Assembly (NCBI GenBank): GCA_050298595.1
Contig: JBNKUM010000051.1
Coordinates: 1-54,052, forward strand
Origin: Gammaproteobacteria bacterium
GTDB taxonomy: Bacteria; Pseudomonadota; Gammaproteobacteria; GCA-001735895
DNA: 54,052 bases
Reading direction: 5' to 3'
The notes beneath the pieces were generated by a model. That model saw only the letters and a program-made list of their open reading frames with translations, was not told the origin of the DNA and made no database searches. Positions 39,278-54,052 of the stretch are shown here, one piece after another; positions within the stretch are counted from its first letter, which is position 1; every line of letters starts with the position of its first letter. A program made the position numbers and the translations under genes.

Positions 39278-39346
39278 ATGAACGAACTAGCTAAAATTTC
39301 TTCACAAAAGATGACCATCATTCTCAATGAATGGTGGGTATGCTAG
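39278..39346 (+). CDS. Putative Trp leader peptide MNELAKISSQKMTIILNEWWVC
   Basis: Tandem TGG TGG near the C-terminus; lies between a promoter and a strong terminator. Confidence 0.6.
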   Translation: MNELAKISSQKMTIILNEWWVC

Positions 39347-39361
39347 TTTTCGACTAGTTTT

Positions 39362-39391
39362 AAAAAAACCCGCCCAGGAGGCGGGTTTTTT
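39362..39391 (+). terminator. Intrinsic terminator/attenuator
   Basis: AAAAAAACCCGCC-CAGGA-GGCGGGTTTTTT, 41 bp upstream of the next CDS. Confidence 0.85.
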
Positions 39392-39432: not shown

Positions 39433-39762
39433 ATGAGTGATAGTGATTTAACGCCGCAAATAAGTCGCGAAGATCAGGCTGATGATATTGTAGACTTTGA
39501 TTTAGTGACTGGAGTGTTCACCAGAAATGCAGCTTTGCTGATATCAAGAAGCTATTTGATTTCACCTCAATTCGTAGCAGGATCCGAAGTATCCGGCAAG
39601 GTGGATGCGTTTTTTATTTACTACTATGACGATTATCTAGAATGGATGTACGCAGTTGATGATTCAGGTAATGTCAGATTTGTGTATACCTACTGCAAAA
39701 GAAACCTGCCAACAGATTGCGAAACTGAAGTTGATGCAGACAGTTATCGGGAAGCATGTTAA
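39433..39762 (+). CDS. Acidic hypothetical protein
   Basis: Strong AGGAGG RBS; 109 aa. Confidence 0.6.
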   Translation: MSDSDLTPQISREDQADDIVDFDLVTGVFTRNAALLISRSYLISPQFVAGSEVSGKVDAFFIYYYDDYLEWMYAVDDSGNVRFVYTYCKRNLPTDCETEVDADSYREAC

Positions 39763-39900: not shown

Positions 39901-42699
39901 CTATGGAGTAATTTGCCACAGCTTATTTAGAAGCTCTGTTTTTCTCGTATCGAAAATACTGTCTCCATTACCGTCACCCCAGGAACCCCAAAGATCTGAC
40001 GCGGATATGGGGTCGTAGCGGGTTTTGATCCAGCCATAAGTATCGGCTGATTCCGGATTAATAGACCAGTAACAGCCATGGATATTATTATCCAGCATGT
40101 AATTTACAAATGCATGTTGCCATTGCTCATCTACGTTGGTGGTGATGTGAGACCACTGGTTTTTAATCGTTGATGTAACCTTGCTGGCAGGCCAGTCCAT
40201 GTTTCCGCCGAATTCACCGACGACTACGGCATAGCCCTGATCTCTAAGGAAACCAAAATGCTGATGCCATCCCTTGCGCAGAACCTGCGAGTCGATCACG
40301 ATTTTGCAATCCTTGGCTGCAGCTTCATCACCTTCTAGATTCGCACACTCGGTTTGAGCAGGATCCATAAATTGAGGCTGAACAAACACTGAGGGTCCAT
40401 AGGTATGGGGTGACAGAACAAGGCGATCCTGAGGAATATTCAGCGGGTCGCTTGCAAAGCCGTACAGGTTTTCACCCCAGTTAGGGATGAGCTCTTTATT
40501 AGCACCGTATTCGCTCAGTTTACTATTCCCTTCAACGAAGATCAGAACATCTTTATTGACCGAATTGATGGCGCTATAGGCCTTTTCGGCAAGCGTACTC
40601 CACTCTTCCCAGGTGTACTCCCAGGGTTCGTTATAAATATCTATGCCTATCACATTGTCGATACCAAGGTCACTTGGAAGCAGAGCGATTTTCTGCAGAT
40701 CAGCAAGCCACTTTTCTTCGTTGTATTCGTCGACATTCATGGTCACCGTTCTACCGTCTTTAAGCTTGACCTGTTTACCTATGTCAGCCGCATTACAGGA
40801 CCATTCCTCGCGGGTAAACTGATACCCTTCACGATTGGCATCCGTCCAGGGTGGGGCTGCGTCAATTCGTCCGGCACGCCATCCAATGTAATTGGAGCAG
40901 GAATGTATATCGATCAGAACCTTGACGTCATATTTATCTGCTGTTCTCAGAAATTCCTTCAGACCTTCCAGTGCATTTTGCTGTTGCACGCTAGGGTGAT
41001 TTTTCAATGACCCACCATTTTTCTGTGAAGCATCTCCCATACCTTGAGGGTCGGTTGGGTCCAGGGTTTGAGGAGAAATAGGCAGACGAATCATATTGAT
41101 CCCTTTCGCCTTAATTTCCTGCATATCAGAATCGATGGAGCGTCCTGAGCCCTGGCTACTGTTAAACCACCACATATTGCCGATATAAAGTTCCATGGGT
41201 GCACCGTCGGCATTGTTTTCGGAGTTCTTTGGTTCCTGCTGGCCATCCAGACCAAACCAGTTACCGCATCTTACAGGAAAGATCTTACCGTCTTCAGTAA
41301 TATTACCATTTGCATCGATACGGAATTTGCCCGCTACAGATCTGTCGTTATTAACTGGTGTGACAACCGGGTAAGTGTCTTCCCACTCGATGGCATAATC
41401 TCCAGAGGTCGTATTATCAGGATCTCGTACAGTATCAGTTGGTGCCGGAGTATCAGTTGGTGCCGGAGTCGGCGTCGGAGTCGGTTCCTGATTCGGATTC
41501 GGAGTCACTGTTGGAACTGGTGTCGGTTCGACAGGGTTGCTGCTACAACCTACGCGAGTACTGCTCAGTGCAAGATCATCCAGCCAGATGTTGAAGTTCG
41601 GCGGTGTCGAACCGCCCTGGTAGAGCTGCCAGCCCAGGCGGATCTTATTGAAGTTCGGGAAGATGAAGTCTCCGTTGCCGTTTCCGTGCACCTTGGTCGA
41701 CACACTAAGCTCAGGCTTTGCCACACCGTCGATCCAGACATTGACAGCATTGTTGGATGCGTCCATCTGCCATTCCATGCATGTCCACTGGCCACTCGCC
41801 GTTGGCGTAGTGTCCTGCCAGCTGGTCCAGTCACCTGTTGAACCACCGTCACTACCCACGCCCCACAGCGGTATGTTGTTGGCATGACCCGGTATATACT
41901 GGCCGCCGACAGGACGTACAAGAGTGCTGTTGCCACTACCAGAGGCTTCAACCATCGTAAAATGCGCATAGTCTGGCCTGGTAGGGAAGGCGTCCACCCA
42001 CAGGCGCATGCGACCATAAAAGCTGTTACCAGTAGGTGCGAACGTGTTTGGCACCAGAAAGGCCATACCATTGTCAGTCGTCGTCAGGTGCAGTGCCTTA
42101 TTGCCGTATGCATGGGTATTGTCGATGCTCGCTGTTGCTGCACGGCTTTCGATAGACCAGGTAGTGCTTACAGCGCTAGTACCCGTGAAAGATTCAAAAT
42201 CCTCACAGAACAGATCTACATTTGTGCAAGTGCCAGAGGTGCTGGGCTCCGGTGTTGGTACTGTTGTCGGCACAGAAGTCGGCACAGAAGTCGGTACAGA
42301 AGTCGGAATAGAAGTCGGAATAGAAGTCGGAATAGAAGTCGGAATAGAAGTCGGTACAGAAGTCGGTACAGAAGTCGGTACAGAAGTCGGTACAGAAGTC
42401 GGCACAGAAGTCGGTACAGAAGTCGGAATAGAAGTCGGAATAGAAGTCGGAACCGGAGTTGGTATTGGCGTCGGGTTAGAAGTACCGTTGTTGCTATCTC
42501 CTCCGCAGGCAGATAAAGAAAGGACCATTGCCAGCATCAACAGAAAGCCGACACTCGAAGAACCTCCGCTTGCCGTGAGGTTTGTTTGATAAGCTTTTGC
42601 CCGAGGAGGGGCAGCAAATGTACCGAGGGTAACGAGAGATACTAGAAAGTGAGCCAGAACTATACGCTTTGGCAGCATGCCTGGAGTATTGGGAAACAT
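39901..42699 (-). CDS. Secreted/lipoprotein multidomain glycanase: PTS(V/I) linker, Cip1-like beta-sandwich, PT linker, GH5 catalytic domain
   Basis: LSAC lipobox; FCEDFE..W.C.EW..D..V.IDG..WLDDL; GH5 motifs RLP, IDIH, YNEP, SPHTYGPSV, GEFGG, YWSINPES. Confidence 0.88.
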   Translation of the reverse strand: MFPNTPGMLPKRIVLAHFLVSLVTLGTFAAPPRAKAYQTNLTASGGSSSVGFLLMLAMVLSLSACGGDSNNGTSNPTPIPTPVPTSIPTSIPTSVPTSVPTSVPTSVPTSVPTSVPTSIPTSIPTSIPTSIPTSVPTSVPTSVPTTVPTPEPSTSGTCTNVDLFCEDFESFTGTSAVSTTWSIESRAATASIDNTHAYGNKALHLTTTDNGMAFLVPNTFAPTGNSFYGRMRLWVDAFPTRPDYAHFTMVEASGSGNSTLVRPVGGQYIPGHANNIPLWGVGSDGGSTGDWTSWQDTTPTASGQWTCMEWQMDASNNAVNVWIDGVAKPELSVSTKVHGNGNGDFIFPNFNKIRLGWQLYQGGSTPPNFNIWLDDLALSSTRVGCSSNPVEPTPVPTVTPNPNQEPTPTPTPAPTDTPAPTDTVRDPDNTTSGDYAIEWEDTYPVVTPVNNDRSVAGKFRIDANGNITEDGKIFPVRCGNWFGLDGQQEPKNSENNADGAPMELYIGNMWWFNSSQGSGRSIDSDMQEIKAKGINMIRLPISPQTLDPTDPQGMGDASQKNGGSLKNHPSVQQQNALEGLKEFLRTADKYDVKVLIDIHSCSNYIGWRAGRIDAAPPWTDANREGYQFTREEWSCNAADIGKQVKLKDGRTVTMNVDEYNEEKWLADLQKIALLPSDLGIDNVIGIDIYNEPWEYTWEEWSTLAEKAYSAINSVNKDVLIFVEGNSKLSEYGANKELIPNWGENLYGFASDPLNIPQDRLVLSPHTYGPSVFVQPQFMDPAQTECANLEGDEAAAKDCKIVIDSQVLRKGWHQHFGFLRDQGYAVVVGEFGGNMDWPASKVTSTIKNQWSHITTNVDEQWQHAFVNYMLDNNIHGCYWSINPESADTYGWIKTRYDPISASDLWGSWGDGNGDSIFDTRKTELLNKLWQITP
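42271..42450 (-). repeat. 15 x 12-bp tandem repeat encoding PTS(V/I)
   Basis: Unit NAYAGAAGTCGG on the + strand, counted directly. Confidence 0.97.
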
Positions 42700-42819
42700 C
42701 TTAATTTAAACCCCTGTTTATTGTTGACACTGAATTAACAACGCAAGTACCGGGAAGACTTTTTGCTTGCATTCGCAATATTGATCACAATTTTTCAATG
42801 AGATCATAAGTGTCGACCA

Positions 42820-43740
42820 AACTCTCCCTAAAACACGATCAGGATTCTAATGCCTGATTTGTGAAGAGTTCTTTTCTGCCTCTTTCGAAAAGCCCCCAGA
42901 CGCAACTGCCAGTGAATGCTATACACCCCGTCTCTATAATTCAAGTGAGGGTAATTGCATCGATATTTACCGGGATCAGAACATTTTCGATAAAAAACAT
43001 GGGGCTATTTCAGTATGTCCCCTAAAAAATAAATTCAGAAATCACTGTCCGCAATTTATTTTCATGGGATAATTTAAACAGATAAATACATGAGATAAAT
43101 ATATGGCCAATTTCAACTCAGATTTGTAGAAATTTTGCGCGTGTTTAAGTCCGGCCCCTTTAATAAATATCCAGATTCTGTTCTGTTGATTACCCGTAGA
43201 CCTGAAAGTCATTTTAAGCCGAAAAGAATGCGCTTCAACTCAACATTCAGCGCGGGATGGTTTTATGTTGAGTGCAAAAATCAAATAATTGATATTTAAA
43301 ATATAAATACACATCCCTTAAAGATAACCTGCAATACACGATATCGGAGTTAAATATGTGAATTTTCGCACAAACTTTAAGCAGGTATTTTTAAATTGTG
43401 GAGCCCAAAAAATCAGGCCTGCTAATGAATATTTCCGAATGGTATTCAGTGTAACCTGTGTTATCAGAGATCGAGGCCAGGCTGAAGTTTAACTGTAGAC
43501 CATGAGGGGTAAAGCATGTCAAATCGTGCTTTAGTACGGCGGCAAGGGTTTGACAATTTTGTCATACAAAAAGCCTTAAGCTGTGAATTTTATACATCAT
43601 CACTTACTCTGGCCCAATTAAAAAGTGTGTTTGCTGATACAGAGTGAAAAGTTACTCCTGAAACCGATTAATCTCTGCTTTATAGTGACCCAATAAAGCC
43701 CTGCTAAGGAAAATATTATGTGACATATTTAACAGCATTT
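42820..43740 (-). promoter_or_regulatory. Paralogous ~0.9-kb non-coding upstream block, copy A
   Basis: Reverse complement aligns colinearly with 44761-45670 and 52825-53716. Confidence 0.75.
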
Positions 43741-43919
43741 TTAAAAATTTTGTAGCAATTTAAGCGGCGTGATAATTCCTCTAACAAGCTTTGTGGGAAG
43801 ACCTTTCAATTGACTACCCTTTTCAGGGTGTACATACGGCCTTTTGTTCCATTTGATACCTCCTGTTTAGCCTCCAGCCGAAAGAACATGAGATAAGAAA
43901 ACCCTTAGACCTCTACGAG

Positions 43920-44291
43920 GTGAAAGCTAACCCATGCCGTTACCATACACGGGAGTTGGCCAGGACTTATAGCGGCACCTCCTTGAGGGTTGTTCAGAGC
44001 ACGCTAATCAGCGCTGATCCTGAATTTACCATACAGACCGATAACTACGAGCGGCAGGTACTGAAATCTAATCAACAATGTTTGGTTGTTCTCAGCTTTT
44101 TGAGTCAGGAAGAGGGTAAGAAAGCAGCCGCAGTGTCATTCAGTATAACCAGTACCCAAACCCCGACGGTTACTGTAGCAATCTCGGCAGAGGTAGTGCC
44201 AGCACCAATACCGATTCCTAAGCCAGAGCCAACGCAAGAGCCCTGGCCTGTACCAGATCGCTACATACCGGCCTTTGAGTTTGATGATTAG
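43920..44291 (+). pseudogene. Possible relic of another secreted protein (Ig-like segment plus Pro/Thr linker)
   Basis: TSTQTPTVTVAISAEVVPAPIPIPKPEPTQEP; no signal peptide or RBS; ends next to a MITE. Confidence 0.35.
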
Positions 44292-44384
44292 TGGGAGCAT
44301 TCCATAGAATTCATAAAAAAGCACCGTTTTTTTAGGGGTAGCAGGAGCATCACTAGGAAAAGTAGAGGTCCTCTCTTTTTTAAA

Positions 44385-44722
44385 CCTGGATTCCGCTGTT
44401 GACAGCTCGCATAGGAGGGTAACCCACTGTTTTGTAGAGTATAACAGTCAATTTTTTCACCCAGCAGATGAGTCCCGCTACAAGGTGAATAGCACGTTTG
44501 AGGCGGTGTATCTCTGCGTTGCCTATAGGGACATAGGTAAGGGGCGTGAGCAGGAGGCGGAAGCTTTGCCTATAGGGACATAGGTAAGGGGCGTGAGCAG
44601 GACGCGGAAGCTTTGCCTATAGGGACATAGGTAAGGGGCGTGAGCAGGACGCGGAAGCTTTGTTACTCCTTGATCTACACCACATCAAACGCACCACAGC
44701 CCGTCCAACTGCGGATTCTAGG
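44385..44722. mobile_element. 338-bp MITE with IS1380-like ends
   Basis: CCTGGATTCCGCTGTTG...CAACTGCGGATTCTAGG; flanks TTAAA / TTGAA. Confidence 0.75.
44521..44661. repeat. 3 x 47-bp tandem repeat nested in the MITE
   Basis: GCCTATAGGGACATAGGTAAGGGGCGTGAGCAGGASGCGGAAGCTTT at 44521, 44568 and 44615; one substitution. Confidence 0.97.
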
Positions 44723-44760
44723 TTGAAGGATTGTCGCGCAGCAAAATCCCCCTCTCCATG

Positions 44761-45670
44761 TTGTTGAATATGTCACAAAGTATTTGCATCTGCATGGCTT
44801 AGTTGGGTAATTTTTAAACAGTGATTGATAGTATTTAGAAGCAATTGGTCACTCTAAGTTAGCAAGAAAATTCAAATGGGGGCAAAGTTAATTAGATGTT
44901 TACTATGCCCCAGTTTAAGGTTTTTTTTTACGACATTGTCATGCTCTGGTTAGCATGCTAAAGCGCGATTTGACGAGCCTTTAGAACCCTTGATATACCG
45001 GTAAACTACGGCCTGGCTTCGATCTATGATCATACAGGTCGTACTTAATCCCCTTCGGAAAATATTTATTACCAGACCAGGTTTTAAGGGTTACCTGCGT
45101 TAAAAGGTCTGTCTCATGTTTATGCAAAAAGTCACATAACTATTTTTCGATATTACACCTGCTGGTTATCTTAATGAAAAATGGCATTGATATATTAAAT
45201 GTTAAGTATTTGATTATTGTGTTTAGCATAAAGGTCTTCCTCGCTGGTTATTGAGTTAAAGCGCGTATTTACAGGCTTAAAAACAGTCTCAGGCCTGGCG
45301 CTGATCAATATCGCGGAATCTGCATTTTTATAAAAGGGGGTGAATGATTTATGCGCTTAAAAAAGCATTAATTAAAGAGTTGATATTGGCCATGAATTGA
45401 TGGAGATAAGAGAACCCGGGTAAAAAAAATGCAACAGGGTTTGCTGAGCTTATTAAAAAGGGGTCTATGTGATACCCCTGGCGTTTTTATCAAATATTTT
45501 CCGATCTCAGTAAATTTTGATCTAAATAACAATGCTTGAATTAAAGAGGTAGGGTGTATAGGATTAATGGTCGGTTGCATTGAGCAACTTTTAGTATGAG
45601 GCAAAAAGAGCTCTTCACAAGTCAGGAATTAGAATCCTGAGCCTGCTTTAGGGGGAGCTATGCTTTTAAA
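44761..45670 (+). promoter_or_regulatory. Paralogous ~0.9-kb non-coding upstream block, copy B
   Basis: CRP-like sites 44762-44777 and 45121-45136, IHF consensus 45203-45215, TCAGGA-N7-TCCTGA 45622-45640 containing TAGAAT. Confidence 0.75.
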
Positions 45671-45804
45671 GGCAGGAGTGATGAGCTTGTTATTTCGTGA
45701 TTTAACCGAGTCGAAATCAGCAGGGCCATTTCTCTGTTTGAGAGTGTAAACAACAGAATACCTACTGTTCCGTTGCAGTGAATAAGATACCTGGAGTATG
45801 AGGG

Positions 45805-48411
45805 ATGATCGATGCTAAAAAGAGGAGTAACAAAAAATGGCCAGCAGGCATACTGTTCCTCTTTTTAACCAGACCGGTGGCTCTGGCTATAAACAAATTT
45901 CAATTTGCTGTTGCACTATTGCTATGTGCCTCTATCGCGTTCCCCCCTGTATATGCGCAATACCAGATGGAGAATTTAAGCCGTAGTGTAGTCGCGGTGA
46001 ATGCAGGTAGTGGCAATGTCTATATCGGATGGCGTTATCTGGGAACGGATCCGACAAATATCGCATTTAATGTTTATCGCAATAACACGCTGATTAATTC
46101 CAGTCCAATCACCAGTAGCACAAACTTTGTCGATAGCAATGGCAGCACCAGCGCTAAGTACACCGTGCGAGAGGTCATAAATGGTGTCGAGACGGGGTCG
46201 CCAGAATCGACTGTTGTCTGGAGCAATCAATATCTCAGCGTAAATTTACAACGCCCAGCAGGCGGTAAAACGCCTGATGGCGTCTCTTATGATTATAGTC
46301 CGAATGACTTAAGCGTTGCCGATCTGGATGGCGATAGCGAGTATGAAATCATTGTTAAATGGGATCCTTCCAATTCAAAAGACAACTCTCAGTCTGGCTA
46401 TACCGGTAATGTCTATCTTGATGCCTATGAAATGAATGGAACCCTCTTGTGGCGCATTGATCTAGGCAGGAATATCAGAGCCGGTGCACACTATACCCAA
46501 TTTATTGCCTATGATCTGGATGGTGACGGACGTGCCGAAGTCGCCTGTAAAACGGCTGATGCTACGATTGATGGTCAGGGTCAGGTGATAGGTGACAAAA
46601 ACGCGGACCATCGAAACAGTAAAGGATACATATTGAGTGGCCCAGAGTATCTGACCATTTTTGACGGCAAAAGTGGCAGGGCGTTGGCCACAGCCGATTA
46701 TGTACCTGCTCGCGGTAAAGTCTCCTCATGGGGTGATAGTTATGGAAACCGTGTGGACCGCTTTCTGGCCGGCGTGGCCTATCTCGACGGCGAGCATCCC
46801 AGTCTAATTATGTCGCGCGGCTATTATACACGGGCAGTCATCGCCGCCTGGGATTGGCGCAATGGATCGCTAACTAATCGCTGGACATTTGACTCCAATA
46901 ACTCTGGTAATAGCGCGGCTGCTGGTCAAGGTGCCCACAATTTAAGCATTGGTGATGTTGACCAGGATAGCCGACAGGAGATTGTGTATGGTTCTGCGAC
47001 CATCGATGACAATGGGCGTTTATTGTATTCGACAGGCTTGTGTCATGGCGATGCACTGCACCTTGGAGATTTCAATCCTGATCGGGATGGTCTGGAAGTA
47101 TTCATGGTGCATGAAGCCCCGAGTTGCTACGGCAAGAATGCCATCGAAATGCACGATGCGCGTACAGGTTCCATTCTCTGGAGCGACTCGGGGAACAGCG
47201 GCGATATAGGTCGCGGTTTAACGGCCGATATTGACCCTCGCTATCGGGGCTCGGAGTCCTGGGCTTCAAGCGGCAGTATGAACTCTGCAACCGGACAGAA
47301 TCTCGGTTCCAGTAGGCCGTCGATCAATTTTGCTGTCTGGTGGGATGCGGATCCGTTGCGAGAAATACTCGACAGGACGGTTATTGATAAGTGGAACGTT
47401 GATAAGTCATCCACCGATCGTTTGCTTACCTCTTACAATTATGGCACTGCATCCAATAATAGCACCAAAGCGAATCCAGGGATTACAGCGGATCTATTTG
47501 GTGACTGGCGAGAGGAAGTTATCTGGCGGCACGACAATAATCAGCAATTGTTGATCTTTACCACAACAGATGTCACCGACATGCGTCAATTCACCTTGAT
47601 GCACGATCCGCAGTATCGCGTAGCTGTGGCGTGGCAGAATTCTGGTTATAACCAGCCACCCCATCCAGGCTTCTATTTAGGTAGTGGTATGACAACACCG
47701 CCGCAACCCGATATTTATGTAGTGGGTGGGTCGAATGACTCAGCTGACCCTGTTGATCCGAATAATTCAGCTGGTGTAACCATAGAGGAAAGTACCACAG
47801 GTTATTGTGGCGTGGACGGATTGATCGAAAGCAATAACACCGGTTTTACTGGTAGTGGTTTTGCCAATACCAAAAATGAGATTTCCACTGGCGTTGAATG
47901 GGAGATCAGTGTTCCAGACAACGGCAGTTACACCCTGAGCTGGCGTTACGCTAATGGCGCATCGACCAATCGCAGCGCTCAAGTGCTGGTGGATGGTAGT
48001 ACAGTGGTATCGAGTGTCAGTTTCCAGAGCACTGGCTTATGGACAGGTTGGAGTAGTGCTTCGACTGATATCACTCTGAATGCTGGTAGTCATCGCATTC
48101 GACTACAGTCAACAATGAGCGAAGGACTGGCAAATATAGATAATCTGACGATTGGCGGGAACAATCCGCAAGCTGCCGATTGTAATAGCACTCCAGGTCA
48201 ACCTGACACTAGTCCGACTTCGGTTTCGACTCAGATTTCGACTCGGGTTCCGACTCCCAGTCCAGATCAGGAAGTCCCCAGCGGTGTTGGAGCTACTACC
48301 CCAGTAGGGCTCGTGATAATGATTGGAATGCTGCTTTTTAGGCCCCGTTGTTCACTGTATATACAGTCTAAGCGGGGCATGAAAAAAGCTGTTTCGTCAA
48401 TACAAGTTTAA
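45805..48411 (+). CDS. PL11 rhamnogalacturonan lyase (YesW-like) with CBM35-like module and C-terminal membrane anchor
   Basis: QMENLSR, WR.LGTD, DLDGD..YEIIVKWDP, NIRAGAHYTQF, WGDSYGNRVDRFLA, HGDALH, MHDPQYR, YNQPPHP; GFTGSGFAN/WRYANG CBM. Confidence 0.93.
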   Translation: MIDAKKRSNKKWPAGILFLFLTRPVALAINKFQFAVALLLCASIAFPPVYAQYQMENLSRSVVAVNAGSGNVYIGWRYLGTDPTNIAFNVYRNNTLINSSPITSSTNFVDSNGSTSAKYTVREVINGVETGSPESTVVWSNQYLSVNLQRPAGGKTPDGVSYDYSPNDLSVADLDGDSEYEIIVKWDPSNSKDNSQSGYTGNVYLDAYEMNGTLLWRIDLGRNIRAGAHYTQFIAYDLDGDGRAEVACKTADATIDGQGQVIGDKNADHRNSKGYILSGPEYLTIFDGKSGRALATADYVPARGKVSSWGDSYGNRVDRFLAGVAYLDGEHPSLIMSRGYYTRAVIAAWDWRNGSLTNRWTFDSNNSGNSAAAGQGAHNLSIGDVDQDSRQEIVYGSATIDDNGRLLYSTGLCHGDALHLGDFNPDRDGLEVFMVHEAPSCYGKNAIEMHDARTGSILWSDSGNSGDIGRGLTADIDPRYRGSESWASSGSMNSATGQNLGSSRPSINFAVWWDADPLREILDRTVIDKWNVDKSSTDRLLTSYNYGTASNNSTKANPGITADLFGDWREEVIWRHDNNQQLLIFTTTDVTDMRQFTLMHDPQYRVAVAWQNSGYNQPPHPGFYLGSGMTTPPQPDIYVVGGSNDSADPVDPNNSAGVTIEESTTGYCGVDGLIESNNTGFTGSGFANTKNEISTGVEWEISVPDNGSYTLSWRYANGASTNRSAQVLVDGSTVVSSVSFQSTGLWTGWSSASTDITLNAGSHRIRLQSTMSEGLANIDNLTIGGNNPQAADCNSTPGQPDTSPTSVSTQISTRVPTPSPDQEVPSGVGATTPVGLVIMIGMLLFRPRCSLYIQSKRGMKKAVSSIQV

Positions 48412-48480
48412 CGGGGCCAGAGTCACAAGCTCTGTACCCATCAGACCCTGGAATGTCAGGCTATTAGAAAGAGTATACAA

Positions 48481-50121
48481 ATGTTTACAGATAGTAAAAA
48501 ACACTCACGGTCCCGCTTACTTTTCTCAAGTCTGGTTGTTCTACTGACTTTCATATTAAGTGGTTGTAACCCGGATGATAGCGCATCCAGCAACCCGGAT
48601 CCGACACCGATCCCAACAGCAGTGCCAACGGCTGTCCCAACAGCAGTCCCAACAGCGATCCCAACAGCGATCCCAACGGCAGTTCCAACGGCAGTTCCAA
48701 CGGCAGTTCCAACGGCAGTCCCAACGGCAGTCCCAACGGCAGTCCCAACGGCAGTCCCAACGGCAGTCCCAACGGCAGTCCCAACGGCAGTCCCAACGGC
48801 AGTCCCAACGGCGGAGCCGAACATCCCATCCAATCAGCAGCCGAGCGCCAGTATCTCAGCGCCTCAGAGCGCCATCTCTGGTCAGACGGTTACCCTGGAT
48901 GGTAGAGCCTCCTCCGACCCGGATGGTGACACGATTACTTATCTATGGACTCAGACACAAGGAAAGAGCATCACTCTGACGGACAATACCAACCCGAGTC
49001 TCAGCTTTGTTACGCCAACTGTCGATAAACCCACGACCTTCACCTTTCAGTTGACAGTGGACGATGGTTCTCTTAGCGGCAATACCAGTGTGCAGTTGCT
49101 GGTGTTGCCCGTGACACCTGACCCCGCCGCCACCGGGCTGCATGTTTCTGGAACACAAATCCTCGAAAGCAACGGCGAAGCCTTTGTCATGCGCGGTATT
49201 AACGTTGCTCATGCCTGGTATCCAGATCATACAGCCAGCTCGCTGAGCGATATTGCAAAAACAGGTGCCAACACCGTTCGTATCGTACTCGCAAGCGGCG
49301 ACCGTTGGACCCAAACCAGTGAGTCAATGGTAGAGAGCCTGATTGCACAGGCCAAAGCCAATAAGTTAATCGCGATTCTGGAAGTGCATGACACCACGGG
49401 TTATGGAGAGCAATCGGGCGCCGCCACCCTGAGTCAGGCGGTGAACTACTGGAAAAGCATCAAAAGCGCGCTGATCGGGCAAGAGGACTACGTCATTATC
49501 AATATCGGCAACGAGCCTTTTGGCAATGGCCAGCCAGCCACTGCCTGGACCAATGGCCATATAGACGCCATTAAAAGCCTGCGCGACGCAGGATTCACAC
49601 ATGCGCTCATGGTGGACGCCGCCAACTGGGGGCAGGATTGGCAAAATACCATGCGCGATAATGCGGTTACCGTGCTGGCTACCGATCCACAAAAAAATGT
49701 GATTTTCAGCGTGCACATGTATCAGGTTTACAAAACAGCTAACACCATTGATAGCTATATGACGAGCTTTTTAGAAAAAGATCTGGCATTGGTGGTGGGT
49801 GAATTTGGAGCCGACCATCAAGGCGAAGATGTAGATGAAGCCTCGATCATGAGTTATGCCAGACAATACGGATATGGCTATCTCGGCTGGTCATGGTCAG
49901 GTAATAGCGGAGGGACGGAATCACTGGATATAGCCCAGAGCTTCGATGCCAGTAGCCTCAGCGGTTGGGGCGAAACCCTCATTAACGGTGTGAATGGCAT
50001 CAAGGCAACGTCTCAGACAGCCGGGATATTTGTTAATAGTACAGATCCGACGTCGGCGCCGGAAAACCAGGCTCCCAATGCCAAAATTACAGTGGCTCCT
50101 CCAGGGTCAGGACAGATCTGA
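48481..50121 (+). CDS. Lipoprotein GH5 beta-mannanase type enzyme with PTAV linker and PKD-like domain; C-terminus appears truncated
   Basis: LSGC lipobox; SSDPDGD..Y.W.Q; MRGIN.AHAWY, GANTVRIVL, EVHDTTG, IGNEP, DAANWGQD, FSVHMY, GEFG, WSWSGN. Confidence 0.92.
   Translation: MFTDSKKHSRSRLLFSSLVVLLTFILSGCNPDDSASSNPDPTPIPTAVPTAVPTAVPTAIPTAIPTAVPTAVPTAVPTAVPTAVPTAVPTAVPTAVPTAVPTAVPTAVPTAEPNIPSNQQPSASISAPQSAISGQTVTLDGRASSDPDGDTITYLWTQTQGKSITLTDNTNPSLSFVTPTVDKPTTFTFQLTVDDGSLSGNTSVQLLVLPVTPDPAATGLHVSGTQILESNGEAFVMRGINVAHAWYPDHTASSLSDIAKTGANTVRIVLASGDRWTQTSESMVESLIAQAKANKLIAILEVHDTTGYGEQSGAATLSQAVNYWKSIKSALIGQEDYVIINIGNEPFGNGQPATAWTNGHIDAIKSLRDAGFTHALMVDAANWGQDWQNTMRDNAVTVLATDPQKNVIFSVHMYQVYKTANTIDSYMTSFLEKDLALVVGEFGADHQGEDVDEASIMSYARQYGYGYLGWSWSGNSGGTESLDIAQSFDASSLSGWGETLINGVNGIKATSQTAGIFVNSTDPTSAPENQAPNAKITVAPPGSGQI
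48613..48816 (+). repeat. 17 x 12-bp tandem repeat encoding PTA(V/I)
   Basis: Consensus unit CCAACGGCAGTC, counted directly. Confidence 0.97.
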
Positions 50122-50308
50122 CATGATGGTGGATAGCCTGCATATTGCGGCAGTGGGCGCATACCAGCTGGCGCGCCTTTTAGCCGAAGCCATATCTGAA
50201 AGTAATCTTACCGCACTAAAGAGTTATGTTATCAAAGAAAATTTCGGCTCAGATAGGCGTCCAACTGTCGATGGATGGAATCCTCGGAAAGGGTACTCTT
50301 ATGATTAA
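50092..50308 (+). pseudogene. C-terminal relic of an SGNH/GDSL esterase-like gene
   Basis: DSLHIAAVGAYQLARLLAEAI resembles SGNH block V (DxxH plus helix); out of frame with the mannanase. Confidence 0.5.
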
Positions 50309-50721
50309 TGTCACAGTCTGTCAACTGAAAGGGGAGAGAGAAGATAGACTCTGTCCCAGATAGCGCTTACTTAAGTAAAAACAGTGAGTGAAAACAAGTT
50401 AAATTGGTGAGGAAGCGATTTTTTAGTCAGAGTTAATACTGCCTTGAGTAAGAGTGTGCCCTAAAACTTAGATTTAGAGGCTTATACAGGGGGGGCAATA
50501 AAAGTCTAAATATCAGATTTATTACAGTCTAAGAATCTCAATATAATCCTGATCTAGAAGATGAGTTTATTGAGATTGATCAGCTGACCAGGTCAGATCG
50601 GAAATGCAGCTGGCTGAATATTGATCATTGAAAAGATGATTGGTGGCGGCTTATGAACAGGCCCTTAGTATAAGGTGTTAGATTAGAAAAAAGTTTTCAT
50701 AGTTATTTTATTATTTAAAGG

Positions 50722-52029
50722 ATGGATTTGGTTATTCCTCAAACTACTTTTATAGCAATGGAGTACATCTTTAAAGATGGAGATCCTAGTGAGTGTGCTT
50801 ACATCATCGAGTCCGGTATGGTGGAGATTTTGCTTGATCACGGCGGAGATGAGCTGGTCATTGCAACCTTGAGTAAAGGTGATATTCTCGGTGAAATATC
50901 TCTTATTGATCGATTACCGAGAATCGGCTCGGCACGTGCAGTCGTAACTACTGAAGTTACCGAAATCCCTTTCGATTACTTTAGCCAGAAAATTAAACAG
51001 TCCGATCCTGCCATTAGAATGTTCCTACGCCATGTCATGGCTCGGTATCGTGAGTTGACTACCAGGCTTCAAACTGTTGCCTCCAGTTTAGCTTATGTCG
51101 GTGACAATGGGGCGTTAGAAGCGCACACATCAACGACCATGGAACTAAAAAATGTGTCCATGCTATACACTGATCTACAAAATCGAATCGACTCAGCTGT
51201 CACAAAGCCCAAATATTTTGATAGCAAGTCGGCAGTCAGTGAAAATACTCTGGAATTTACCAAACTAATGTTTACTGAGGAAAAGTTATTAAGAAAAGCG
51301 GTGGATAATAAAGAGTTCGTCATGCACTATCAGCCGATAATTGAACTGGTTGGAAACAAGATGGTCGGCTGCGAGGCTCTGGTACGCTGGAACCATCCAT
51401 CTGGTGAATTAGTATCTCCCTCAGTCTTTATAAACCAGCTGGAAAAAAGCAATTTGATTATTGATATGGGGTACTGGATAGCAGAGCAGGCCTGTCAGTT
51501 CCAGAATCGTATTTACGACCAGTTTCGTTACAAATTTTTTGTAGCCATTAATCTTTCCGGAAAACAATTTGATGATCAAATGCTGATCAAGAAACTCACT
51601 GATATTATGGAAAAAACTGGTGCCAGATGTAATCGAATCGAGTTTGAGATAACAGAAAGCATATTGATAGAGAACCCAGAATATATTTCTAAAGCGTTAC
51701 ATGAGTTAAAGGAATTTGGTGTAGGTCTAGCGATAGACGACTTTGGTACAGGCTATTCGAGTTTCAGTAATCTACATAAACTCCCCTTTGATAAACTTAA
51801 AATAGATCGTACATTTATAAGTTCCATGGCGCATGCCAGTAAGAGTAAACAGATTGTTAAGTCAATGATTAATATGTCTTACGATCTGGGTATGACAGTG
51901 GTAGCTGAAGGTATTGAGTTGAGGAGTGAAGTTGATATCTTACATGAGTATCAGGCAACCTACGGACAGGGGTACTACTTTTCCAGGCCCATAAATGAAA
52001 CTGATTTCGTAAAACTCCTCCAGCCTTAA
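50722..52029 (+). CDS. cNMP-binding plus EAL-domain c-di-GMP phosphodiesterase
   Basis: IFKDGD..YIIESG..GEISL..PR..SA; YQP, EALVRW, INLS, EITE, DDFGTGYSS, KIDR, AEGIE, QGYYF. Confidence 0.92.
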   Translation: MDLVIPQTTFIAMEYIFKDGDPSECAYIIESGMVEILLDHGGDELVIATLSKGDILGEISLIDRLPRIGSARAVVTTEVTEIPFDYFSQKIKQSDPAIRMFLRHVMARYRELTTRLQTVASSLAYVGDNGALEAHTSTTMELKNVSMLYTDLQNRIDSAVTKPKYFDSKSAVSENTLEFTKLMFTEEKLLRKAVDNKEFVMHYQPIIELVGNKMVGCEALVRWNHPSGELVSPSVFINQLEKSNLIIDMGYWIAEQACQFQNRIYDQFRYKFFVAINLSGKQFDDQMLIKKLTDIMEKTGARCNRIEFEITESILIENPEYISKALHELKEFGVGLAIDDFGTGYSSFSNLHKLPFDKLKIDRTFISSMAHASKSKQIVKSMINMSYDLGMTVVAEGIELRSEVDILHEYQATYGQGYYFSRPINETDFVKLLQP

Positions 52030-52127
52030 CCTGCTGAACCCATATAAGCATTTTCTGTGCAGGCAAAAATATCGAGCCAGGGTTAAGGGATATCAAGCAG
52101 TAATAAATCACAATTAAATTCAGGGAA

Positions 52128-52212
52128 AGCTGTTGAATTTTTCACAGAAAATATTCAACAGCATGGCTTTATTGGGTAACTGTAAAGCAGGTATTGACGG
52201 TGATTTGTAGCT
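52128..52212 (+). promoter_or_regulatory. Partial copy D (distal ~85 bp) of the 0.9-kb block
   Basis: TGTTGAATTTTTCACA..GCATGGCTTTATTGGGTAACTGTAAAGCAG matches the distal end of copies A-C. Confidence 0.65.
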
Positions 52213-52213
52213 A

Positions 52214-52510
52214 GTGCCTATCCATAAACTCCCAACCTGCTGAAAAATAGGAAAATAATTTAACGCAGGTATTAAAAAAGGCTCTGAGGTTTTGAAGAAT
52301 TATTTTCGACAAAAAAATCCAGAAACCGGAGAGCCTTACCATGCGAGAAACCCGTACAGCTCAAGTTTGGCGACTTTCTCAGGGCTCGGTCGAATTTGCT
52401 CGGTACACATCACGAGATCCTCACCTTAATAGAAGAGGACCAGGTGATGGAACCAACCTGTAGCATCGGACGTAAAGGCCTTTCGCTGTATGCTGCTTAA
52501 ACAAAATCGT
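52214..52510 (+). mobile_element. Degraded IS (ISNCY-like) left end and transposase 5' fragments
   Basis: MRETRTAQ at 52341, then out-of-frame HHEILTLIEED..GRKGL and RCMLLKQ-like fragments. Confidence 0.5.
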
Positions 52511-52824
52511 GGGCGAGATGGCGATACCCGTTATCGTGAAGTGCAAAACATGCATCGCTCTGTAGCGAATATGAGTGTGTTCAAAGGCGATGTTGAACGT
52601 CGCCCATCAGCATCAGGAAGTGTATGGTGACGGCCCAGGTAAACTTTCGCCGCGTTGAGGCCTGAGTTTTTATTATCTCAAGCTTTTTTTAGGGGGTGTG
52701 TCAAATGTAACAAAAGACCGTATCTATATCCTAAATAGGAGTGGCAATTGAAAGTACTGCCACAAAAGCCCGTCTGATGGCTTATCACGCATTTTAAATT
52801 GAGGCAATAAAAAACTTAAAAAAC

Positions 52825-53716
52825 CTGTCAAGTATGTCACAGAATATTCCTTCAGTATGGCTTTGTTGGGTAACTTTTAAGCAGAAATGGATGGTATTTA
52901 TAACTCAGTGATGGCAGTAAAATATTTAAATGGGGGCTGAGTAAAGTGATGTACACAATACGTATGTAATTTAAGGCTTTGTGTTTGACGAAATTATTAT
53001 GTTTAGCTGTCGTGTTAAAGCGCGAATTGATATGTCATAGGAACCACCGATCAAAGGGTAAACTACAGCCTGGCCTCGATTTTTGATCATAGAGATCTGG
53101 TTGAATCACCTTCAAAAAAATTATAACACCACCCGATTGTTAAAGGTTAAACGCGTTAAAAGTTCTGATTTAGATTTGTGCGAAAAATCTCATAATATTT
53201 TACGTTTTTAATCGTACAGCCTGTCTTTATGAAAAAAGATATTGATTTTTTAAATGTCAAGCATTTGATTATTGAATTTGGCGTAAAGGTCTCTCTGTTC
53301 TGAATGTTGAGTTGAAGTGCGTTTTTAAAAGCTAAAATGAGTTATATGCCAGCAGGTGATGAGCAGCGCTGTATCTAAATTTTTAAAAGGGGAATGATTG
53401 ATTAATATGCTTGAAAAAAATAAATTTAAATTGATATTTTTCATGAATCGATAAGCATAAAACAACCCCTGCATGTAAAAGAATTTGATGTGTATGTTTA
53501 TAAGGGGGCGGGTTGAAACAGGCGTGTTTATTTCATCAAAAAAGCTCTGGCCTCGATAAATTTTGATCCATATAGCCATAATTGAATTTAGGAAAGAAAT
53601 TTATAGGATTTGGGTCAGAAGCGTTAGGCAACTTTTCGAATGAAGTAATAAAGAGCGTTTCACAAACCAGGAATTAAAATCCTGAATGTGCTTTTGGGAA
53701 GGGGCTACTTTTTAAA
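52825..53716 (+). promoter_or_regulatory. Paralogous ~0.9-kb non-coding upstream block, copy C
   Basis: CRP-like sites 52826-52841 and 53177-53192, IHF consensus 53258-53270, CAGGA-N7-TCCTG 53668-53684. Confidence 0.75.
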
Positions 53717-53782
53717 TTTATTGTTCTGCGTGACTGGTGCGATAAGGGCCTGTCGATGCGTAATACCTGATGGAGGGTTCAT

Positions 53783-54052
53783 ATGATTTTTCGTAGTCAA
53801 CAATTACAGCCTCGCTTGCTATTCTCAAGCCTGGCTCTCTTAATGCCATTCATATTGAATGGCTGTGCTCCGGATGATGTCACATCGGGCATCTCTGATC
53901 CAACTCCGGTTCCAACACAGGTCCCAACACAGGTCCCAACACAGGTTCCAACTCAGGTTCCAACACAGGTTCCAACACAGGTGCCTACGCAGGTTCCAAC
54001 ACAGGTACCTACGCAGGTTCCTACTCCAGAACCGGTTTCATCGTGTACTGGA
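53783..54052 (+). CDS. 5' part of a lipoprotein with PTQV linker (probable CAZyme); runs off the window
   Basis: GGAGG RBS; MIFRSQQLQPRLLFSSLALLMPFILNGCAPDD is paralogous to the 48481 N-terminus. Confidence 0.85.
   Translation, partial: MIFRSQQLQPRLLFSSLALLMPFILNGCAPDDVTSGISDPTPVPTQVPTQVPTQVPTQVPTQVPTQVPTQVPTQVPTQVPTPEPVSSCTG
53912..54019 (+). repeat. 9 x 12-bp tandem repeat encoding PTQV
   Basis: CCWACNCAGGTN units, counted directly. Confidence 0.95.

Follow-up and report, generated by a model that had tools for sequence, protein, structure and literature searches.

A 54,052-bp stretch of the genome of an uncultured gammaproteobacterium (the window) contains three similar blocks of DNA, each upstream of a gene. 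What are these blocks, and why should the same ~1 kb precede genes as different as a cellulase and a rhamnogalacturonan lyase?

A dispersed family of elements

The three copies (A, B, and C) align colinearly over ~1 kb with a mean column identity of 77% and pairwise identities of 64–68% (blastn). The original prediction of three colinear but diverged blocks was confirmed. The motifs listed there were found in A, B, and C within 0–2 nt, except for the IHF consensus, and measured from the distal TGT-N8-TCACA through CAGG-N9-CCTG, the motif region spans 895, 878, and 859 bp in A, B, and C (predicted: ~896, 879, and 860 bp). The block ends defined in that prediction lie 121, 135, and 67 bp from the respective start codons. 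The elements and genes of the window are:

39901–42699, minus strand: gene headed by A, 932-aa GH5 (Cellulase; Pfam PF00150, E 6e-38) with its own, different N-terminus
42718–43855, minus strand: copy A, full element (nhmmer, family HMM positions 2–1115 of 1125, E 2e-254; universal core 42824–43734)
44730–45756, plus strand: copy B, full element (nhmmer, family HMM; universal core 44762–45655)
45805–48411, plus strand: gene headed by B, 868-aa rhamnogalacturonan lyase PL11 with CBM6/35 (Pfam PF21348, E 1e-247)
48481–50121, plus strand: second gene of the B unit, GH5 and PKD domain (Pfam)
52039–52212, plus strand: relic 5′ fragment of another element (HMM positions 30–199, nhmmer E 1e-19), ~490 bp upstream of copy C
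52702–53816, plus strand: copy C, full element (HMM positions 2–1125), reaching the start codon (53783) and the shared signal-peptide coding region
53783–54052, plus strand: gene headed by C, family-type lipoprotein N-terminus, 90 codons to the contig end

The HMM match of copy B begins at 44672, but positions 44672–44729 belong to an abutting MITE-like repeat.

A genome-wide search with the family HMM (nhmmer) identified 18 full copies and 5 fragments in the source genome; the predicted blocks are real but their number was set too low. An order-wide family search gave 33 matches in a sister species and 2–4 in each of two further congeners, and 73 out of 79 genomes of the order contained no match. 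The family is clade-specific and restricted to a few related species. All genomes are draft, MAG-like assemblies in which many copies lie at contig ends. No match was found in a plasmid collection. The full homology extends over ~1.09–1.14 kb, and most copies run on into the start codon and a common lipoprotein signal peptide. All 18 full copies are co-oriented with a large ORF directly 3′ of each, and wherever downstream sequence is visible, the full copy ends at, or at most ~250 nt before, this ORF. The genes 5′ of different copies are unrelated to one another, placing the copies in dispersed chromosomal neighbourhoods. The family also includes decayed relics (a mini copy, C27, and the fragments).

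The domains encoded downstream comprise GH5, PL11, GH27, CE8+PL3, GH16, GH10+GH62, S8 peptidase, Thiol_cytolysin, and GDSL. The expectation that the elements precede carbohydrate-active enzymes (CAZymes) holds in so far as the targets are secreted or lipoprotein enzymes, but these are not CAZymes alone: an S8 peptidase, a thiol-cytolysin-family protein, a GDSL lipase, and lipoproteins with only binding modules are also headed by the element. Within the window, a CAZyme target is evident for A (GH5) and for B (PL11, with GH5 as the next gene) but not demonstrated for C, whose gene has no Pfam match in its visible 90 codons. A shared N-terminus (MIxRSQQSQPRLLFSS...SGC) is encoded by 14 genes directly behind an element, including the C gene (match at 53783–53878). 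Overall, the signal peptide was found in ~17 genes: these 14, two second genes of element-headed units, and one weak, doubtful match. In the B unit, the GH5 and PKD gene encodes the family's lipoprotein signal peptide (tblastn, 72% over 32 aa) with no adjacent element, and the N-termini encoded behind copies A, B, and C113 are of other types.

Coding potential, RNA structure and selection

The longest open frames within the blocks span 53–96 aa compared with a shuffle mean of ~76 aa, the blocks display no period-3 signal, and indels are mostly 1–2 nt. No small ORF is conserved across the copies on either strand, and none of 41 stop-free segments of at least 35 aa from A, B, and C matched Pfam at E ≤ 0.1. 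The cassette is non-coding, in agreement with the earlier statement that the blocks have no ORF in common. A protein gene or pseudogene was rejected for lack of an open frame, codon periodicity, and protein-family similarity.

RNAalifold returned no consensus pairs in the distal 335 columns and no distal covariation. Consensus folding energies are weak on both strands (−3 to −24 kcal/mol per 200 nt), and Rfam gave no match inside the blocks at E ≤ 1. Global RNA structure is absent and the cassette is not a long structured RNA, which the original prediction had offered as an alternative. A structured ncRNA or riboswitch was discarded as a candidate (no Rfam match and just two 5-pair proximal hairpins with modest support). 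An insertion sequence or MITE was also rejected: terminal inverted repeats shared by A, B, and C are absent, no transposase is encoded inside, and all 18 copies are co-oriented with their gene.

Orthologous copies show that the element is constrained. The ortholog of A is 97.8% identical over 543 nt compared with 94.6% at third codon positions of the neighbouring GH5 gene, and the ortholog of C48 is 94.0% identical over 1083 nt compared with 83.7% at position 3. Based on these two informative pairs, the elements evolve at ~0.4 times the rate of third codon positions. A third pair (C21 and its counterpart in G011) was uninformative because its flank is equally similar. The fourth pair (B) is more diverged than synonymous sites, which may be explained by replacement of the element. 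Among paralogs, core identity forms a star-like plateau of 0.63–0.72 in 31 out of 32 pairs, and the element is more similar than position 3 of the shared N-terminal coding sequence in 29 out of 32 pairs. Column variability is correlated between a young 10-copy subfamily and 18 old lineages (Spearman 0.36, p 1e-28), and differences within the C48 ortholog pair are concentrated in variable columns (p 0.002; second pair, p 0.08). These patterns point to site-specific purifying selection at the level of the primary sequence. They are accompanied by evidence of module exchange between element and coding sequence: in the G001 ortholog of the PL11 gene the element is 67% identical compared with 90%, 94%, and 78% at codon positions 1, 2, and 3, and the coding sequence is more similar than the element in 3 out of 32 paralog pairs, suggesting mosaic histories. 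With 18 gene-co-oriented copies, module exchange, and purifying selection, the notion of a portable, duplicated control region is supported.

Two explanations would give these blocks a different history. That they are the decayed remains of a protein gene or of an IS/MITE, or a large structured RNA, is highly improbable. The ~1.1-kb length and the multi-copy dispersal do resemble a mobile element, an IS4-type transposase gene lies upstream of one copy (C99), and a MITE adjoins copy B, but the single orientation directly 5′ of a gene, the missing terminal inverted repeats and coding signal (0 out of 41 segments in Pfam), and the lack of any plasmid-collection match, Rfam family, or consensus structure argue against it. 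We also consider it quite improbable that the distal part is functionless, a young repeat hitch-hiking with the promoter and signal-peptide unit whose conserved appearance reflects recent origin or gene conversion. The narrow, star-like identity plateau is what a burst would leave, the family is restricted to few related species, decayed relics exist, the B orthologs have diverged as much as paralogs, and an intact gene is preceded by a short form that lacks the distal part. However, both informative ortholog pairs diverge more slowly than third codon positions, the same columns are spared across independent lineages, the differences of the C48 pair fall into variable columns, the element exceeds position 3 of the adjoining coding sequence in nearly all paralog pairs, and the CRP-type sites described below are kept in 28–30 of 31 copies.

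Proximal unit and distal region

Motif conservation was counted in 31 aligned copies. The family consensus contains a promoter-like motif, CTTGAAT-N14-GTATAGNAT, ~170–235 nt before the start codons. A −10-like hexamer is present in 31/31 copies and the full match in 29/31 at one aligned position, compared with 14/31 full matches at the next best position. The hexamers (TTGAAT-17-TAGGAT) agree with the consensus at 4/6 positions each and have sigma-70-type spacing; in scans of single copies, promoter-like sites do not exceed shuffle expectation. The proximal features are:

42916–42944, minus strand: promoter-like motif of A, TTGAAT ... TGTATAGCAT
45536–45564, plus strand: promoter-like motif of B, TTGAAT, 17-nt spacer, TAGGAT
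53582–53609, plus strand: promoter-like motif of C, TTGAAT ... TTATAGGAT, spacer one base shorter
45573–45591, plus strand: leader hairpin 1 of B, GGTTGC-ATTGA-GCAACTTT, at the predicted mRNA 5′ end (A, 42889–42907; C, 53617–53635)
45623–45639, plus strand: leader hairpin 2 or palindrome of B, CAGGA-ATTAGAA-TCCTG, TAGAAT in the loop (A, 42840–42856; C, 53668–53684)

In a distant species (G012), a short form heads an intact family gene 296 nt from the preceding gene, and its homology starts exactly at CTTGAAT, ~20 nt after a terminator-like hairpin. Since the motif is present in all 31 copies and the short form begins at it, the proximal part is most likely a promoter and leader, usually followed by the lipoprotein signal peptide, and transcription would start just after the motif. 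Hairpin 1 has 5 pairs (94% of cells paired, double changes at two pairs) and 16 G-U/U-G cells that are compatible with the sense strand only; it was flagged as terminator-like in B only. Hairpin 2 has 4+1 pairs (94% paired, one double change) and forms the sharpest conservation peak of the element. For both hairpins combined, 93.7% of cells are paired and four pairs show double changes compared with 0.9 expected (2 out of 500 shuffles reach four).

The original prediction placed a TARAAT −10 element within CAGG-N9-CCTG. The motif is present, but TARAAT sits in a hairpin loop and the alignment offers no −35 partner for it; the universally conserved promoter-like motif upstream of this hairpin had not been noted. 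An enhancer-type, sigma-54-dependent promoter is not supported, as a −24 GG/−12 GC element (TGGCAC-N5-TTGC) occurs at no aligned position in 8 or more of the 31 copies.

The distal features are:

43719–43734, minus strand: distal CRP-type site of A, TGTTAAATATGTCACA, start of the universal core (B, 44762–44777; C, 52826–52841)
45121–45136, plus strand: second CRP-type site of B, TATGCAAAAAGTCACA (A, 43357–43372, TGTGCGAAAATTCACA; C, 53177–53192)
44959–45023, plus strand: central conserved boxes of B, TAAAGCGCGATTTGA at 44959–44973 and AAACTACGGCCTGGCTTCGAT at 45003–45023 (A, 43519–43533 and 43470–43490; C, 53016–53030 and 53060–53080)

The distal CRP-type site has at most two mismatches to TGTGA-N6-TCACA in 28/31 copies at a fixed aligned position, and the second site in 30/31 copies, where it is among the five sharpest conservation peaks. 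The two sites are dyad-symmetric and the best-kept distal islands. The genome encodes a CRP equivalog (NF008732, 351 bits compared with a cutoff of 266). CRP input, as originally proposed, is plausible because both sites are kept and the equivalog is encoded, and we infer that CRP may bind at the predicted positions. They lie ~440 and ~800 bp upstream of the promoter-like motif, far from class I/II positions, and no conserved −10 element occurs at class I/II distance from either site in the 31 copies. The predicted box AAACTWCRGCCTGGCYTCGAT is present in all three copies at 43470–43490, 45003–45023, and 53060–53080, and a model (R1) built on this central-box stretch retrieves all family members. 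The case for IHF is weak, as the predicted consensus matches exactly in copy A only and is aligned in just 15/31 copies. Among 911 core columns, 47% are at least 80% conserved and 11% are less than 50% conserved. Conservation had been described as island-like; sharp peaks do exist, but conservation is broad, with five sharp peaks and three short valleys over ~850 bp. Such breadth is unusual for DNA bound by transcription factors and would be compatible with a functional RNA lacking structure as well. We consider the distal ~850 bp most likely to be an upstream add-on of regulatory DNA, probably acting as DNA rather than RNA.

On balance, we favour, with considerable room for doubt, a clade-specific, portable, non-coding expression cassette with a promoter and leader proximally and regulatory DNA distally. 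The sigma-70-type promoter-like motif would start a transcript with a leader of ~170–235 nt, in which a small stem-loop at the start would stabilise the mRNA 5′ end and a second, highly conserved hairpin or palindrome would follow. In most copies this proximal unit would run into the Shine-Dalgarno site and the shared lipoprotein signal peptide. Proteins would bind the distal ~850 bp, with cAMP/catabolite input through the two CRP-type sites and other factors acting at several further conserved boxes. Duplication and recombination would have placed the cassette before many different secreted or surface enzymes.

The extent of the transcript allows another reading, which we judge unlikely: the whole ~1.1 kb may be transcribed from a distal promoter, the distal part being a long, largely unstructured 5′ leader or ncRNA (e.g., a scaffold bound by RNA-binding proteins or sRNAs, or one used for Rho-dependent attenuation). 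Conservation is fairly even over the distal 850 nt and not limited to short boxes, all copies share one orientation relative to the gene, the G-U asymmetry indicates a sense transcript over the proximal part at least, and weak −10-like hexamers occur at several distal aligned positions in 15–21 of 31 copies. However, a full promoter-like match reaches at most 14/31 copies at any distal position, distal base pairs and covariation are absent, in G012 an intact gene follows the proximal unit alone, which starts at the promoter-like motif, and the best-kept distal islands are dyad-symmetric DNA sites. Less likely still is that the real promoter is the TAGAAT within CAGG-N9-CCTG, or that this palindrome, rather than forming an RNA hairpin, serves a dimeric repressor as its DNA operator. 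The position of the palindrome at the sharpest conservation peak would fit, TAGAAT matches the −10 consensus at 5/6 positions with a −10-like hexamer kept in 27/31 copies, and symmetric double changes suit a DNA palindrome and an RNA stem equally. Against this, the total promoter score at TAGAAT is ≥9 in 0/27 copies, the alignment shows nothing −35-like 16–18 nt upstream and no TG extension, and the homology of the short form reaches ~130 nt further upstream, to CTTGAAT.

Relation to known systems

The closest precedent for the proposed expression cassette is the promoter/leader cassette family of the Borrelia burgdorferi erp genes (ospE/ospF-related, with an "upstream homology box"), of which the present family is an analogue and not a member. 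In both cases paralogs share promoter/operator DNA: here 18 full copies of ~1.1 kb, with the promoter-like motif in 31/31. A conserved lipoprotein leader peptide is recombined onto diverse mature parts of the erp group, which is co-expressed, and the architecture here is similar, with a leader peptide continuous with the upstream DNA in 14 genes, many downstream domains, and mosaic element and coding-sequence histories. In Borrelia, the erp genes code for adhesins that interact with the host and sit at a single allelic position of cp32 prophage plasmids, whereas the present copies are dispersed, head degradative enzymes, and show neither a cp32-type allelic site nor erp homology. The conserved upstream part of erp is reportedly a few hundred bp long; the cassette described here, at ~1.1 kb, additionally conserves ~850 bp further upstream, CRP-type sites included.

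Long control regions are known from Pseudomonas aeruginosa algD and from E. coli csgD and flhDC, where ~0.5–1 kb of regulatory DNA combines activator sites located far upstream, inputs of the IHF/CRP type, and long leaders in the control of extracellular products. Those regions are single-copy, whereas the cassette is a repeated, portable unit with 19–33 copies per genome. Classical class I/II cAMP-CRP promoters carry their sites near −41.5, −61.5, or one to two helical turns further upstream. The cassette resembles them in the TGTGA-N6-TCACA dyad of nearly all copies, the encoded CRP equivalog, and targets that include polysaccharide-degrading enzymes, a typically catabolite-controlled function, but differs in the much greater distance of the predicted sites from the promoter-like motif. 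The vsp/vlp genes of Mycoplasma share a conserved 5′ non-coding region and a prolipoprotein signal peptide across paralogs with different mature parts, as seen here, and undergo phase and antigenic variation by site-specific inversion within one cluster; in contrast, no recombinase or inversion sites were seen at the cassette copies. If the portable-cassette reading is correct, many secreted and surface enzymes of these bacteria would form one co-regulated secretome under common control.

Family size, genomic setting, and downstream genes

The three copies of the element in the window (A, B, and C) are colinear over ~1 kb, with a mean column identity of 77% in the alignment and pairwise identities of 64–68% by blastn. 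A profile search of the whole source genome (G000, a draft of 5.49 Mb in 119 contigs, the window being contig C51) identified 18 full copies (1.09–1.14 kb) and five fragments, which supports the original prediction of a portable control region and enlarges the observation behind it. The 18 full copies are a lower bound, several being located at contig ends, and the same holds for all copy numbers because draft assemblies break at such repeats. The G+C content of the blocks is 35–39% compared with 45% for the genome. In every copy with visible downstream sequence, a large open reading frame on the same strand starts at the element end or within ~250 nt past it. The profile search delimited the copies of the window as follows:

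Copy A: 42718–43855, minus strand, full element
Copy B: to 45756, plus strand, full element
Copy C: 52702–53816, plus strand, full element

The motifs predicted in A, B, and C were found in place, and the predicted distal-to-proximal spans of ~896, 879, and 860 bp were computed as 895, 878, and 859 bp. The exception is the predicted IHF consensus, which is exact in A only and aligned in 15 of 31 copies. Copy B is adjoined at its distal end by a MITE-like repeat (44379–44729). As read from the sequence, the terminal inverted repeats of the latter are imperfect and ~23 bp long; inside, a 47-nt unit occurs three times in tandem. By blastn this repeat produced 170 HSPs distributed over 41 contigs of the source genome, plus dozens of matches in the sister species (G001) and in G011, another genome of the order. 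The same repeat end substitutes the distal ~100 nt in copies C100 and C114a and in three copies of the sister species. Relic fragments of the family lie at 52039–52212 in the window and at C27:7338–7554, C95:2497–2669, and C12:24480–24585 in the source genome. The C27 relic, which has an equivalent in contig C308 of the sister species, carries an internal deletion, so that its central boxes directly adjoin a decayed promoter region. The mini copies C27, G001 C308, and C12 were considered as natural deletion experiments and are uninformative, being decayed relics with no open reading frame following.

Further features of the window are:

39305–39389, plus strand: Rfam match to Pseudomonas sRNA P9 (RF00624; 44.5 bits, gathering score 43), intergenic, upstream of the open reading frame 39433–39762
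43920–44291, plus strand: 123-aa open reading frame between the divergent copies A and B, without Pfam match; probably not a gene, since the region is not conserved at the orthologous locus of the sister species (31–47% identity)
52198–52485: short repeat upstream of copy C, shared with C22:97562–97869 (81%), C88, C113, and the genomes G001, G010, and G011

A downstream open reading frame is visible behind 16 of the 18 copies. According to Pfam, seven of these genes encode a CAZyme catalytic domain (GH5 twice, PL11, GH27, CE8+PL3, GH16, and GH10+GH62), four encode other domains (S8 peptidase, Thiol_cytolysin family, GDSL lipase, and a weak cytochrome-P460-like match), and three contain PKD, Big_5, or SUEL-lectin modules only. 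Two genes are cut by contig ends: the visible part of the C114c gene contains modules of the latter three kinds only, and the 90 visible residues of the copy C gene match no Pfam family. The genes behind the elements are not confined to CAZymes. The cytolysin-family gene (L005:2181–4625, contig C114) encodes an 814-aa lipoprotein with PKD, SUEL-lectin, and thiol-activated-cytolysin-family domains (Pfam E 7e-80) and belongs to a series of three genes headed by elements, arranged in tandem inside 15 kb.

For most copies, homology extends past the Shine–Dalgarno site and the start codon into a common lipoprotein signal peptide (MIxRSQQSQPRLLFSS...SGC) and a PT-rich linker. An N-terminus of this type was found in ~17 genes of the source genome: 14 lie directly behind an element, one is a weak, doubtful match, and two are second genes of element-headed units:

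48481 in the window: second gene with the family signal peptide
C114:8631: second gene with the family signal peptide

The genes headed by copies A, B, and C113 have different N-termini; in these copies homology ends ~65–135 nt before the start codon. Multiplication and recombination have joined the cassette to no fewer than ten kinds of enzyme.

The best-conserved stretch was turned into a 120-nt sequence-only covariance model, with which 79 genomes from four genera of the order were searched. Matches were found in the source genome (19), the sister species (33), G010 (4), G012 (2), G011 (1), and G069 (1, marginal), with none in the other 73 genomes; a blastn sample (5 of 41 genomes positive) agrees with this distribution. 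The sole G011 copy (L016, G011 C60:1–2574) is located on a 4.4-kb contig that is 93–95% identical to contig C21 of the source genome, flank included, compared with ~78% for housekeeping DNA of the two genomes, which suggests mis-binning or recent transfer; the copy itself shares 94% identity with one of the source genome. Between the C21 element and the upstream EamA gene lie ~900 nt of extra non-coding DNA (C21:35200–36113) that is 87–95% identical between the two contigs, with a ~200-nt indel, and is unrecognised by the family profile. A Gemmatimonadaceae MAG and a Bacteroidales MAG each gave a single 21-mer match, possibly by chance.

Conservation and the proximal unit

Among the 911 core columns of the alignment, 23% are at least 90% conserved, 47% at least 80%, and 11% less than 50%. 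Conservation peaks at five places: the distal CRP-type site, AAGCGCGATTTGAC, a second CRP-type site, AATGTTGAGTTAA, and TCAGGAATTAGAATCCTGAA. When promoter-like sites were scanned at shared aligned positions in all 31 aligned copies, a single site stood out, CTTGAAT-N14-GTATAGNAT (TTGAAT, a 17-nt spacer, and TAGGAT), ~170–235 nt ahead of the start codons. Its position carries the −10-like hexamer in 31/31 copies and the full match in 29/31, compared with 14/31 for the runner-up position. Scans of single copies for promoters and terminators gave counts at or below shuffle expectation, except for copy C, with four terminator-like sites (1.4 expected).

Copy A, promoter-like motif: 42916–42944
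Copy B, promoter-like motif: 45536–45564
Copy C, promoter-like motif: 53582–53609
Central conserved boxes of the distal part: TAAAGCGCGATTTGA and AAACTACAGCCTGGCTTCGAT

Hairpin 1 (AGTTGC-N5-GCAACTTT) begins a few nucleotides from the predicted start site and contains 16 G-U/U-G cells that fit the sense strand only; it may serve as a 5' stabiliser of the mRNA. Hairpin 2 (CAGGA-ATTAGAA-TCCTG) holds in its loop the TARAAT originally proposed as the −10 hexamer, a proposal that is improbable: TARAAT has no −35 partner in any copy and reaches a score of 9 in 0/27. Pairing across both hairpins amounts to 93.7%, and four pairs show double changes (0.9 expected), a number reached in 2 of 500 shuffles.

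G012 has an intact lipoprotein gene of the family type just 296 nt past the preceding gene. The family homology of this short form starts exactly at CTTGAAT, ~20 nt past the terminator-like hairpin of the upstream gene, and runs on through both hairpins, the Shine–Dalgarno site, and the signal peptide. This arrangement supports the motif as a putative core promoter and a proximal unit that would be able to stand alone; the simplest reading is that the distal ~850 bp lie upstream of the predicted transcription start. One copy in G010 starts ~100 nt upstream of the motif.

Constraint and probable function of the distal part

At 53–96 aa, the longest open frames of the elements are as long as expected from shuffles (~76), a period-3 signal is absent, indels are mostly of 1–2 nt, and none of 41 stop-free segments of at least 35 aa from A, B, and C matches Pfam at E ≤ 0.1. 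No small open reading frame is conserved in position, the only recurrent stop (17 copies) having variable starts and lengths. A protein-coding origin is therefore rejected, and so is a mobile element, as A, B, and C share no terminal inverted repeats and distant blastn against a plasmid collection gave no match; the blocks are non-coding, as had been claimed.

Sequence constraint is indicated by comparisons with the adjoining genes. Between the source genome and the sister species, identity is 97.8% across 543 nt for the ortholog of A (adjacent GH5 gene 99/99/94.6% at codon positions 1/2/3) and 94.0% across 1083 nt, with a single gap, for that of C48 (coding sequence 89.8/94.3/83.7%), an element divergence of ~0.4 times the third-position rate in both pairs. 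The paralog comparison covered the 32 pairs in which 150 or more residues of the shared N-terminal coding sequence could be aligned (66 were possible among 12 genes, and 34 were dropped for too short alignments). Core-element identity is 0.63–0.72 in 31 of them (mean 0.67; 0.82 for C22–C21), third-position identity has a mean of 0.54 and a minimum of 0.35, and the element is the more similar of the two in 29/32. Furthermore, column variability correlates between a young 10-copy subfamily and 18 older lineages (Spearman 0.36, p 1e-28, 881 columns), and the C48 ortholog differences are located in otherwise variable columns (p 0.002; second pair p 0.08). Two results do not fit this picture simply. 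In the PL11 unit of the sister species the element is just 67% identical to B (coding sequence 90.5/94.2/78.1%), suggesting replacement of the element and signal-peptide region, to which the three paralog pairs with more similar coding sequences also point; the C21–G011 pair is uninformative for selection, its non-element flank being equally similar.

The universal core opens with a CRP-type dyad, TGTCA-N6-TCACA, with at most two mismatches in 28/31 copies, and a second dyad, TGTGCGAAAAGTCACA, follows ~360 bp further on in 30/31. The source genome encodes a CRP equivalog at C85:146065–146742 (351 bits, cutoff 266). Classical class I/II activation does not apply to the two sites, which are ~800 and ~440 bp away from the promoter-like motif. 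The scan of aligned copies showed no sigma-54 element, A-tracts gave no 10–11 bp periodicity peak against shuffles, and among the genes flanking the copies no regulator, recombinase, or transposase recurs. Larger indels of the upstream part cluster at 10–11 and 21 nt, events that are alignment-dependent and given little weight. Directly upstream of copy C (50722–52029, plus strand) is a gene whose product combines a cyclic-nucleotide-binding domain with an EAL (c-di-GMP phosphodiesterase) domain, possibly a cAMP to c-di-GMP link beside elements with CRP-type sites.

As to mechanism, we infer that DNA-level control with CRP input is somewhat the better bet for the distal part. The long structured RNA originally offered as an alternative is rejected: Rfam has nothing inside the blocks at E ≤ 1, RNAalifold consensus energies of 28 non-redundant copies are just −3 to −24 kcal/mol per 200-nt window and alike on both strands, and, once four near-duplicates are removed from the 31 aligned copies, the remaining 27 form 0 consensus pairs in the distal 335 columns and two small hairpins only in the proximal 259 (10 pairs, −5 kcal/mol). 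Some other RNA-level role of the distal part is improbable; unstructured regulatory RNA could share the sequence constraint, and the predicted start would leave the distal part outside the transcript. Least probable is a distal part without function, with the G012 short form and the diverged PL11 element on its side and the slow divergence of the elements against it. Beyond DNA-level control with CRP input, we tentatively consider that the distal ~850 bp might be a new kind of cis-regulatory module, copied as a unit 19–33 times per genome into a secretome regulon: long, sequence-constrained, enhancer-like DNA (or unstructured regulatory RNA) that would integrate CRP and several further factors far from the promoter.

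Precedents and significance

Long multi-factor promoters such as algD and csgD and the Mycoplasma vsp/vlp families offer analogies, and a full-text literature search gave no account of a repeated upstream cassette on the kilobase scale ahead of secreted enzymes. The closest documented precedent is the erp (“upstream homology box”) family of Borrelia, where conserved promoter/operator DNA together with a lipoprotein leader, likewise conserved, is recombined onto diverse mature parts (PMC10016077). The present family works alike but is an analogue rather than a member: it is ~1.1 kb long, chromosomal, and dispersed, heads degradative enzymes, and has a long constrained upstream extension.

Bacterial regulons are usually viewed as growing by the gain of short operator sites. 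Here a whole kilobase-scale cassette of probable upstream control DNA, putative promoter, leader, and often export signal was multiplied, and if the tentative module reading is true, it would be a bacterial analogue of regulon wiring by the spread of portable enhancers. The 50-odd natural copies span 50–94% identity, short forms and relics included, and would provide a ready mutational series, provided that the distal part does work as a long-range control module. For secreted enzymes, the cassette might in addition serve as a compact “express-and-export” part of natural origin.
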